59,170 nucleotides of DNA, filler included, from Parachlamydiales bacterium (GCA_020051075.1; 3 parts of 3 records of this genome joined end to end with filler, not necessarily neighbours in it), one strand, 5' to 3'; counted from the whole stretch's first letter, positions 3,234 through 3,625 are shown. Notes: generated by a model from the letters alone, not told the origin. Translations and numbers: made by a program.

Positions 3234-3325
3234 ATAAATCACCAAATAAATGTAAAAAAGTTTATTAACTAATCAAAAAAAAATCGCAACTATTCATGTT
3301 CCCTCTTTTTTAAGGCAAAGACGCC

Positions 3326-3353
3326 AAAAAAAGATGAGAAGAGAAAATCATCT
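3326..3353 (-). terminator. weak terminator/attenuator-like hairpin in the phhA leader
   Basis: Minus strand AGATGA-N10-TCATCT followed by a T-run. The stem is only 6 bp. Confidence 0.35.
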
Positions 3354-3423
3354 GATAGCAAAAGATAAAGCTATGCTAACAAACGGGCCGCACCATCAAT
3401 GAGATGGATGAGCAAAAAGAAAT

Positions 3424-3546
3424 TTAATAAGAATAATAGGAAGGATAAGAGAAAGAGACGAAAGAAAAGAGATGAGAAACAGAGGACATTGACGGCGAGC
3501 ATGCCTTTAAAGGATGCACCCTGACTGAGGTCGATTTGGTTGACAT
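3424..3546 (-). CDS. putative Phe/Tyr-rich leader peptide (40 aa: MSTKSTSVRVHPLKACSPSMSSVSHLFSFVSFSYPSYYSY)
   Basis: Translated by hand (below the ORF-track cutoff). Strong SD TAAGGAG 8 nt before the ATG. 3 Phe and 4 Tyr in the last 14 codons. Lies upstream of phhA. Confidence 0.65.
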   Translation of the reverse strand: MSTKSTSVRVHPLKACSPSMSSVSHLFSFVSFSYPSYYSY

Positions 3547-3596
3547 TTTAACACTCCTTAAATGTTATTTTTGAACCCCACATGAGGCCAAATTTG

Positions 3597-3625
3597 ATTT
3601 TAACAAAATGATGTATTTTTCTCAA
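3597..3625 (-). promoter_or_regulatory. sigma66/sigma70-type promoter for the leader and phhA operon
   Basis: TTGAGA-17 bp-TAAAAT with an extended -10 TGn, overlapping the dtd stop codon. Confidence 0.6.

Follow-up and report, generated by a model that had tools for sequence, protein, structure and literature searches.

A conserved leader ORF ending in tyrosine codons upstream of phhA in environmental chlamydiae, a probable sensor of tRNA-Tyr charging that may act through Rho

In the leader-peptide attenuators of E. coli, such as trpL, pheL and hisL, a short ORF led by a Shine-Dalgarno (SD) sequence carries codons for the end product clustered near its stop, and genes for the supply of that amino acid lie downstream. 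Other upstream ORFs (uORFs) control the access of Rho to the transcript. According to the accessible part of a 2025 review of Rho, a ribosome at the end of the tnaC, speFL, cruR, mgtL or corL uORF shields an adjacent or intragenic Rho site; tnaC, speFL and cruR stall by action of a ligand on the nascent peptide, and mgtL and corL refold (PMC12360218). The Cys leaders of actinobacteria have a run of cognate codons at the stop, no terminator hairpin, and several loci per genome. In the available text on these leaders, polypyrimidine motifs that are not conserved were proposed as Rho sites (PMC1262725). At the tested locus of M. smegmatis, the part of the report that is available describes the Cys leader as translational, acting via SD pairing (10.1101/834739).

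To our knowledge, the stringent response is absent from the Chlamydiaceae. A putative trpL of C. felis, as printed, has 40 residues with a Ser/Phe-rich stretch and tandem Trp near the end, and the accessible text reports no attenuator structure for it (PMC3937554). For C. trachomatis, the sections available of one source assign control of trpBA to YtgR, call trpL a poor attenuator, describe cis-attenuation at the trp operon as unvalidated, and report an effect of chlamydial Rho on polarity when Trp is limiting (PMC7755916). We found no Tyr leader at phhA and no chlamydial leader set of the kind described here in the literature covered, most subscription journals and older comparative surveys of attenuators being outside that coverage. 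The conserved and modular leader described below would be a directly testable answer, for the environmental lineages, to how chlamydiae sense amino-acid shortage.

The window, by which we mean the whole stretch of DNA analyzed, is 59,170 nucleotides long and comes from a Parachlamydiales bacterium (GCA_020051075.1, referred to as G000). Runs of N at 7196-7295 and 34000-34099 are the joins of contigs C126, C129 and C130, and gene order across the joins is not established; the leader and phhA sit on C126. The order on the minus strand is dtd, promoter, SD, leader ORF, a 190-nt spacer, phhA, a Vut_1/YhhQ gene, and a pterin dehydratase-SnoaL fusion. The features are:

3622..4092, minus strand: dtd, D-aminoacyl-tRNA deacylase, the upstream neighbour, outside the conserved unit
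3597..3625, minus strand: predicted sigma-70/66-type promoter of the leader, TTGAGA-17-TAAAAT, 10 of 12 matches, overlapping the dtd stop codon
3554..3560, minus strand: SD sequence of the leader ORF, TAAGGAG, separated by 7 nt from the ATG at 3546
3424..3546, minus strand: leader ORF of 40 codons, Ser-rich, with a terminal Tyr cluster; it ends in HLFSFVSFSYPSYYSY followed by the stop
3427..3447, minus strand: putative sensing cluster, four TAT among the last seven sense codons, the last of them adjoining TAA
3451..3468, minus strand: three Phe codons, apparently a component of the pyrimidine tract and not a conserved sensor
3409..3483, minus strand: unstructured C-rich, G-poor tract, a candidate Rho utilisation site (75 nt with 19 C, 3 G and 18 YC dinucleotides)
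3349..3385, minus strand: spacer hairpin 1, AU-rich, -9 to -10 kcal/mol (-10.4, z -3.0 when taken as 3345-3385), a candidate pause or 3'-end stem
3290..3345, minus strand: spacer hairpin 2, -15.9 kcal/mol, z -3.3, with no U run directly after it, competing with an AGATGA/TCATCT hairpin
2313..3233, minus strand: phhA, phenylalanine 4-monooxygenase of 306 aa (PF00351; HDIAGH and EFG motifs; activity predicted)
1619..2323, minus strand: transporter of the Vut_1/YhhQ (QPTR) family, TIGR00697 over cut-off, the sole copy found in G000
871..1611, minus strand: pterin-4a-carbinolamine dehydratase fused to a SnoaL-like domain (domain match)

The leader ORF, its promoter and its SD are genuine, and a preliminary description of this DNA had placed all three correctly. 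It was also right that the ORF ends with three Phe codons followed by four Tyr codons, all TAT, and that both His codons are CAT; 13 of the 40 codons are Ser. Four TAT out of four is unremarkable in one leader because 71% of the Tyr codons of the genome are already TAT (0.71 to the fourth power is 0.25), and a bias is visible only across homologues. The weak AGATGA/TCATCT hairpin that had been placed before phhA exists and is as weak as claimed (-4.0 kcal/mol, z -1.44, equalled by 15 of 200 shuffles), but it overlaps the two stronger spacer hairpins. A second promoter suspected just before phhA is weak: it matches at 8 of 12 positions, its spacer is 19 nt long, and the promoter scan did not call it. 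When the 156 SD-led intergenic short ORFs of G000 were ranked by pyrimidine content around the stop, the leader ORF came first.

Relatives of the locus were drawn from 61 and 401 genomes plus at least 80 metagenome and at least 80 genome loci. Removal of duplicates left 30 chlamydial PhhA loci at 60% identity or more among the matches listed. The comparable uORF that the preliminary description had called for in chlamydial phhA orthologs was found: in 26 of these 30 non-redundant loci a Tyr cluster ends directly at a stop codon 51-282 nt upstream of phhA, although the loci are related to one another and this and the following counts are not independent. Intact ORFs with an SD and an ATG make up 22 of the 26; they have 20-42 codons and come from families f1, f8, f27 and f33 and from metagenome contigs. 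The remaining four are cut by a contig end (L003), interrupted by an in-frame TGA (L005), out of frame (L182), or a remnant (L179). Leader length, N-terminus and upstream genes differ among the homologues, and the locus of G161, which belongs to the same family as G000, and L093 have the same leader at the same spacing. When the SD-ATG with the highest score was chosen without regard to frame, it opened the Tyr frame in 20 of 25 loci; of the five misses, two (L171 and L185) do have an intact start in frame, with a score slightly below the best. Of 22 relatives, 14 have promoter-like sites upstream of the uORF, and 3 have them in the uORF end plus spacer. On this pattern of conservation, the ORF is almost certainly a translated regulatory leader.

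Four genomes (G348, G331, G314 and G042) are leaderless. A quick PhhA tree, from which L185 was omitted because it is too short, placed 25 leader-bearing and 2 leaderless proteins on one branch (SH-aLRT 96), with G314 and G042 outside. Beyond the Chlamydiota, which the preliminary description had also proposed to search, a comparable leader was found in 0 of 142 non-chlamydial PhhA loci among the matches listed (6 of them with less than 200 nt upstream). Non-chlamydial L016, L102 and L137 gave loose matches, none of which is a Ser-rich ORF with an SD in the position of the leader. The distant chlamydial hydroxylases (L184 and L186-L194; 26-33% identity) have no such leader, and the leader design is absent from the loose matches in two of them (L187 and L189). 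Searches of eight loci against Rfam at E of 1 or less, which included T-boxes, riboswitches and preQ1, gave no match on the leader and one chance miRNA match in L098 away from it. A CIRCE-like reading of TAGCA...TGCTA arms in several spacers, judged against what we take to be the CIRCE consensus, was dropped because the gap length varies. The spacer of L179 (G306) folds at -89 kcal/mol (z -8.8) and its leader remnant has no SD-ATG; it is possibly an inserted palindromic element next to a decayed leader.

The Tyr codons are the part of the peptide that is kept. The last 12 codons of the 22 intact leaders hold 101 Tyr codons, compared with 17.7 expected from base shuffles. Each of the 26 leaders has three to six, the final one adjoins the stop codon at all 26 loci, and the spacing varies (YYSY, YYLY, YYFYY, YYRSY, YYSSY). 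By contrast, Phe codons are rarer than expected from base composition (35 observed vs 67.2 expected); they are wholly absent from 3 of the 26 leaders, and 5 of the 26 have none within the last 16 codons. The share of Phe is 7.2% in the Tyr leaders and 9.2% in the His leaders described below. Under-representation for the base composition and an equal frequency in the His leaders mark Phe as a by-product of the U/C-rich tract. Among synonymous codons, the last 16 positions favour those with pyrimidines, with TCY (TCT or TCC) for 118 of 123 Ser, CCY for 28 of 28 Pro, and GTY for 15 of 15 Val codons. From -60 to +15 nt around the stop, the 26 leaders contain 482 C vs 106 G and most barely fold; in the window the predicted minimum free energy of 3405-3490 is 0, with no pair in the C-rich tract. 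The remainder of the 3' half of the leader is, judging by these codon choices, constrained as RNA. The criteria for Rho utilisation sites are well established, and the C-rich, G-poor, unstructured tract fits such a site.

The signal is very probably charged tRNA-Tyr, with induction on shortage. We think it somewhat probable that the leader as a whole is a hungry-codon attenuator that senses charged tRNA-Tyr and acts, most likely, via Rho. When Tyr is plentiful, the ribosome would pass through and be released, which would leave the C-rich tract bare; Rho would then load on the tract and terminate RNA polymerase in the spacer. When Tyr is scarce, the ribosome would wait on the UAU codons, cover the centre of the tract and block Rho, and phhA-vut-pcd would be transcribed so that Tyr could be made from imported Phe. 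The Ser, Leu, Pro and Phe codons would serve to spell the tract. The comparisons between genomes support the core of what had been proposed for this locus, namely that the leader is conserved and translated and that ribosomes stalled at its Tyr codons would turn on phhA-vut-pcd.

Gene content is suggestive of an anabolic PhhA that is a supply route for Tyr, because leader-bearing genomes lack both tyrA and hpd. Prephenate dehydrogenase (tyrA) over the cut-off was found in 0 of 18 leader-bearing genomes, several of them incomplete and three weak matches falling below the cut-off, and its only occurrence was in leaderless G331. The gene for 4-hydroxyphenylpyruvate dioxygenase (hpd) was found in 0 of the same 18 genomes and only in leaderless G042. 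Since the other two leaderless genomes, G348 and G314, are also without tyrA and hpd, this pattern is suggestive only. In G000, which is 99.9% complete, genes for chorismate synthase and four TyrP-family permeases are present along with folE; prephenate dehydratase was not found in it, and no leader was found before the four permease genes. If PhhA supplies Tyr, induction by Tyr shortage is a sensible sign, and the leader would mark this PhhA clade as a tyrosine-supply enzyme.

With its SD-led short ORF, its end-product codons near the stop and its amino-acid supply genes downstream, the phhA leader is like trpL, pheL and hisL. It differs from them in that Tyr would be sensed, phhA is the target, the ORF is longer (20-42 codons) and Ser-rich, and no switch with ribosome position is predicted (0 of 21 leaders). 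It would work like a leader-peptide attenuator, yet the antiterminator dependent on ribosome position of the classical family is not predicted in it. As is described for tnaC, speFL, cruR, mgtL and corL in the accessible part of the Rho review (PMC12360218), a ribosome at the uORF end would keep Rho from a site next to or within the ORF. Unlike in the tnaC and mgtL types, neither a peptide nor a fold is conserved, and it is the cognate codons within the tract that, when starved, would stall the ribosome; the conserved non-cognate residues at a fixed distance that are the hallmark of ligand arrest were not found across the leaders. If this is true, a hungry-codon attenuator covering a Rho site would be unlike the ligand-arrest and refolding uORFs in the portion of that review available to us (PMC12360218). 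The actinobacterial Cys leaders, as far as they are described in the available text (PMC1262725), share the cognate-codon run at the stop, the lack of a terminator hairpin and the occurrence at several loci per genome. Unlike those leaders, the phhA leader keeps its C-rich tract through the choice of codons within the ORF, and the conserved pairing of the sensing region with the SD that marks translational attenuators (mycobacterial poly-Cys, ermC type) was not found. The C. felis trpL, compared from its printed sequence (PMC3937554), has the same outline as the phhA leader, but it is putative and Trp-specific, and it was not placed there in any wider design.

The phhA leader also has look-alikes elsewhere in G000. 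Of the next seven ORFs in the ranking of 156 by pyrimidine content, four precede genes of the amino-acid transporter families SNF, SSS, BrnQ and AgcS. Three of these leaders recur in relatives:

L195:1860-1985 (G000 C64; relatives L203-L232): His-cluster leader ending in ...SSLHSLHHEHPAH before the stop, 365 nt before the gene of an SSS-family symporter
L197 (G000 C2, upstream of 13286, minus strand; relatives L267-L291): Leu-cluster leader ending in ...LPLLSLFLLSL before the stop, ahead of the gene of an SNF-family transporter
L199 (G000 C93, upstream of 27079, minus strand; relatives L292-L313): leader ending in LKRxxxFVxSKRK before the stop, ahead of the gene of an AgcS-family carrier

Counting the locus of G000 itself and the best 22-30 loci per search, the His-cluster leader precedes the SSS gene in 17 of the best 30 loci (3 of them without upstream DNA), the Leu leader precedes the SNF gene in 9 of the best 25, and the Lys/Arg leader precedes the AgcS gene in 12 of the best 22. 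L215 has CGT in place of the clustered CAT codons of G000, which makes it an Arg version of the His leader. The His leaders contain 375 C vs 119 G, and a hairpin switch with ribosome position was predicted in 1 of 14. The end of the AgcS leader peptide is conserved more strictly than the ends of the other leaders, and this leader could be a Lys/Arg sensor or an arrest peptide. A Val-rich candidate leader before BrnQ was absent from 29 of the 29 best related loci. Other pyrimidine-rich SD-led ORFs of G000 are L198 (C68), L200 (C99) and L201 (C17); these three precede brnQ (Val-rich), a gene for a 455-aa protein without a Pfam or NCBIfam match (Ile/Leu-rich), and one for a MORN-repeat protein (Ser-rich). 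The look-alike leaders before transporters suggest a general nutrient-sensing design in environmental chlamydiae. We see about an even chance that these Ser-rich leaders form one set, with a Rho site inside the ORF, the terminal codon (Tyr, His, Arg, Leu, Lys/Arg) as specificity, and no RNA switch. If this is true, the clustered codon predicts the substrates of the SSS (His, Arg), SNF (Leu) and AgcS (Lys/Arg) transporters.

Rho is probably the output of the leader. Rho access, which the preliminary description had raised, fits the unstructured tract with more C than G at the end of the uORF and the rho gene found in 21 of 22 genomes, from which we infer the use of Rho. Caution is needed here because the terminator-less Cys leader with a proposed Rho site proved translational at the tested locus. 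That case, as given in the available part of the mycobacterial report (10.1101/834739), is a precedent for another reading in which the same Tyr-tRNA sensor has as its output a weak AU-rich intrinsic terminator or pause, access to the phhA SD, or mRNA decay; we consider this rather unlikely, though it is the strongest of the rivals. The spacers are indeed more structured than shuffles (mean z -2.55), and 21 of 25 have a hairpin followed by a U-rich stretch of some kind. A strict intrinsic-terminator test was passed by 5 of 26 spacers vs 1.1 in shuffles; it recovers only 24 of 240 convergent gene ends in G000, so that failure to pass it says little against a terminator. In the window leader no terminator was called. 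To follow the alternative structures that had been suggested for the leader, each leader except L179 was folded at equilibrium only, with the bases under a ribosome masked and the ribosome placed on the first Tyr of the cluster or on the stop codon. The probability of a hairpin plus U-run shifted by more than 0.3 with ribosome position in 0 of 21 Tyr leaders, just as it was largely unmoved in the His leaders, and hairpin 1 of the window has a probability of 0.91 when free, 0.98 with the ribosome stalled and 0.98 with the ribosome at the stop. A hairpin plus U-run is absent from L098, L099, L110 and L171. The spacer hairpins may instead be constitutive pause or 3'-end stems. Pairing of the SD with the Tyr region is predicted in several leaders (L004, L010, L011, L174, L178 and L185; p 0.6-0.75), but such duplexes with the phhA SD are on average no better than shuffles (mean z -0.22; window p 0.0) and SD sequestration is not conserved; the unpaired probability of the phhA SD is 0.37 free vs 0.39 masked. 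Also, C is preferred over G where a model based on structure has no need of it.

Other readings concern the sensor. An arrest peptide of the TnaC/SpeFL type, with free Phe or Tyr bound in the exit tunnel and a stall at the stop codon, would suit the last Tyr adjoining the stop at every locus and a rut-like tract placed as in tnaC and speFL in the accessible part of the review (PMC12360218). This is very improbable given that leader length, N-terminus and Tyr spacing vary with no non-cognate residue in fixed register, and paralogous leaders exchange the clustered codon only, which fits a tRNA-charging sensor and not an arrest peptide. The preliminary description had favoured a gate for "Phe present and Tyr scarce", in which stalling on Phe codons would keep the operon off and stalling on Tyr codons would turn it on. 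The three Phe codons before the Tyr cluster in the window, and at least one Phe in the last 16 codons of 21 of the 26 leaders, are in its favour, but it fails because Tyr is conserved and Phe is not (three leaders being Phe-free, and Phe being depleted and just as common in His leaders); it is highly improbable. We give next to no weight to the idea that the ORF is untranslated and arises by chance from a motif conserved at the DNA or RNA level, as it might if TATTAT were a -10 box or were bound by a protein. The bases of TATTAT and TATTAA are near-invariant and TATTAT matches the -10 hexamer at 5 of 6 positions, but an SD-ATG opens the Tyr frame in most loci at varying lengths, promoter-like sites lie upstream of the uORF and seldom at its end or in the spacer, and the His, Leu and Lys/Arg versions keep the frame without the motif. 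Finally, the leader may mainly report the queuosine status of tRNA-Tyr through UAU decoding and feed back on Vut_1 as a queuine/preQ transporter. The TAT bias expected in homologues is there, with TAT 118 : TAC 1 over the 26 leaders, which are related sequences, vs 105 : 116 in the phhA genes of the same loci; the other third positions of the leaders are 153 : 79 for T:C. The His leaders have CAT 92 : CAC 9 and the Leu leaders CTT 37 : CTC 14, so that the excess of U-ending codons is strongest in the two families read by queuosine (Tyr and His) and modest for Leu. Moreover, vut lies downstream of phhA in 20 of 24 informative loci and is single-copy in G000, and tgt was found in 21 of 22 genomes. 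On the other side, the clusters at this position are of Tyr only and never of Asn or Asp, and TAT is retained in 14 of 14 codons in three intact leaders at loci that have pcd and no vut match. In addition, the His leaders prefer CAT although an SSS transporter gene lies downstream of them, the Arg swap is made with CGT, a codon outside the set read by queuosine, and G000 itself has queC, queF and queA. The effect of queuosine on UAU decoding is also of opposite sign in V. cholerae and E. coli, according to the text available from one study (PMC11703503). A queuosine sensor is therefore very unlikely as the main function that had been proposed for the NAU codons.

Sensing of charged tRNA-Tyr remains our preferred reading, and queuosine is kept beside it as a doubtful secondary input because the U-ending excess is strongest for the two families that it reads. 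A simpler reading of the TAT and CAT excess would be that wobble-read U-ending codons stall more readily. It is unlikely, and somewhat more so than such a secondary input, that the leader set is combined with feedback from tRNA modification, in which near-absolute UAU and a transporter of a queuosine precursor would make the operon follow the overall UAU decoding capacity. By score, the TGT matches in the 21 genomes form two classes, one at about 1e-155 to 1e-163 and the other at about 1e-117 to 1e-121. In five genomes checked, two of the stronger class (1e-155 to 1e-163) have queA and queC and three of the weaker class do not; queA and queC were not found in G009, G006 and G334. The two classes fit de novo synthesis vs salvage of queuine.

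PhhA of the window scores 294 bits against NF008877 (cut-off 247) and 197 against TIGR01267, below its cut-off of 265. The phhA start is most likely ATG 3233 and not TTG 3245. No dtd gene lies upstream of the leader in the other chlamydial loci examined, and this neighbour is found in this genome only. In the distant f28 loci, which are leaderless, vut likewise follows the hydroxylase gene (8 of 8), and the pairing of the hydroxylase with Vut_1 (window 1619-3233; L187-L194) extends across the Chlamydiales. As speculation, the Vut_1 transporter could carry a pterin cofactor besides or instead of a queuosine precursor; no tie of YhhQ to hydroxylases or pterins was found in the YhhQ literature covered. 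Most relatives of the pterin dehydratase-SnoaL fusion (871-1611) match its first 111 residues only. A single ORF at window 4673-5494 joins the N-terminal part of Hen1_L to the last third of the PNKP ligase domain, and resembles what an in-frame deletion would leave of a hen1-pnkp RNA repair locus. At window 6823-7101 lies a repeat (about 270 bp) that occurs many times on other contigs, at 82-96% identity and often by contig ends.
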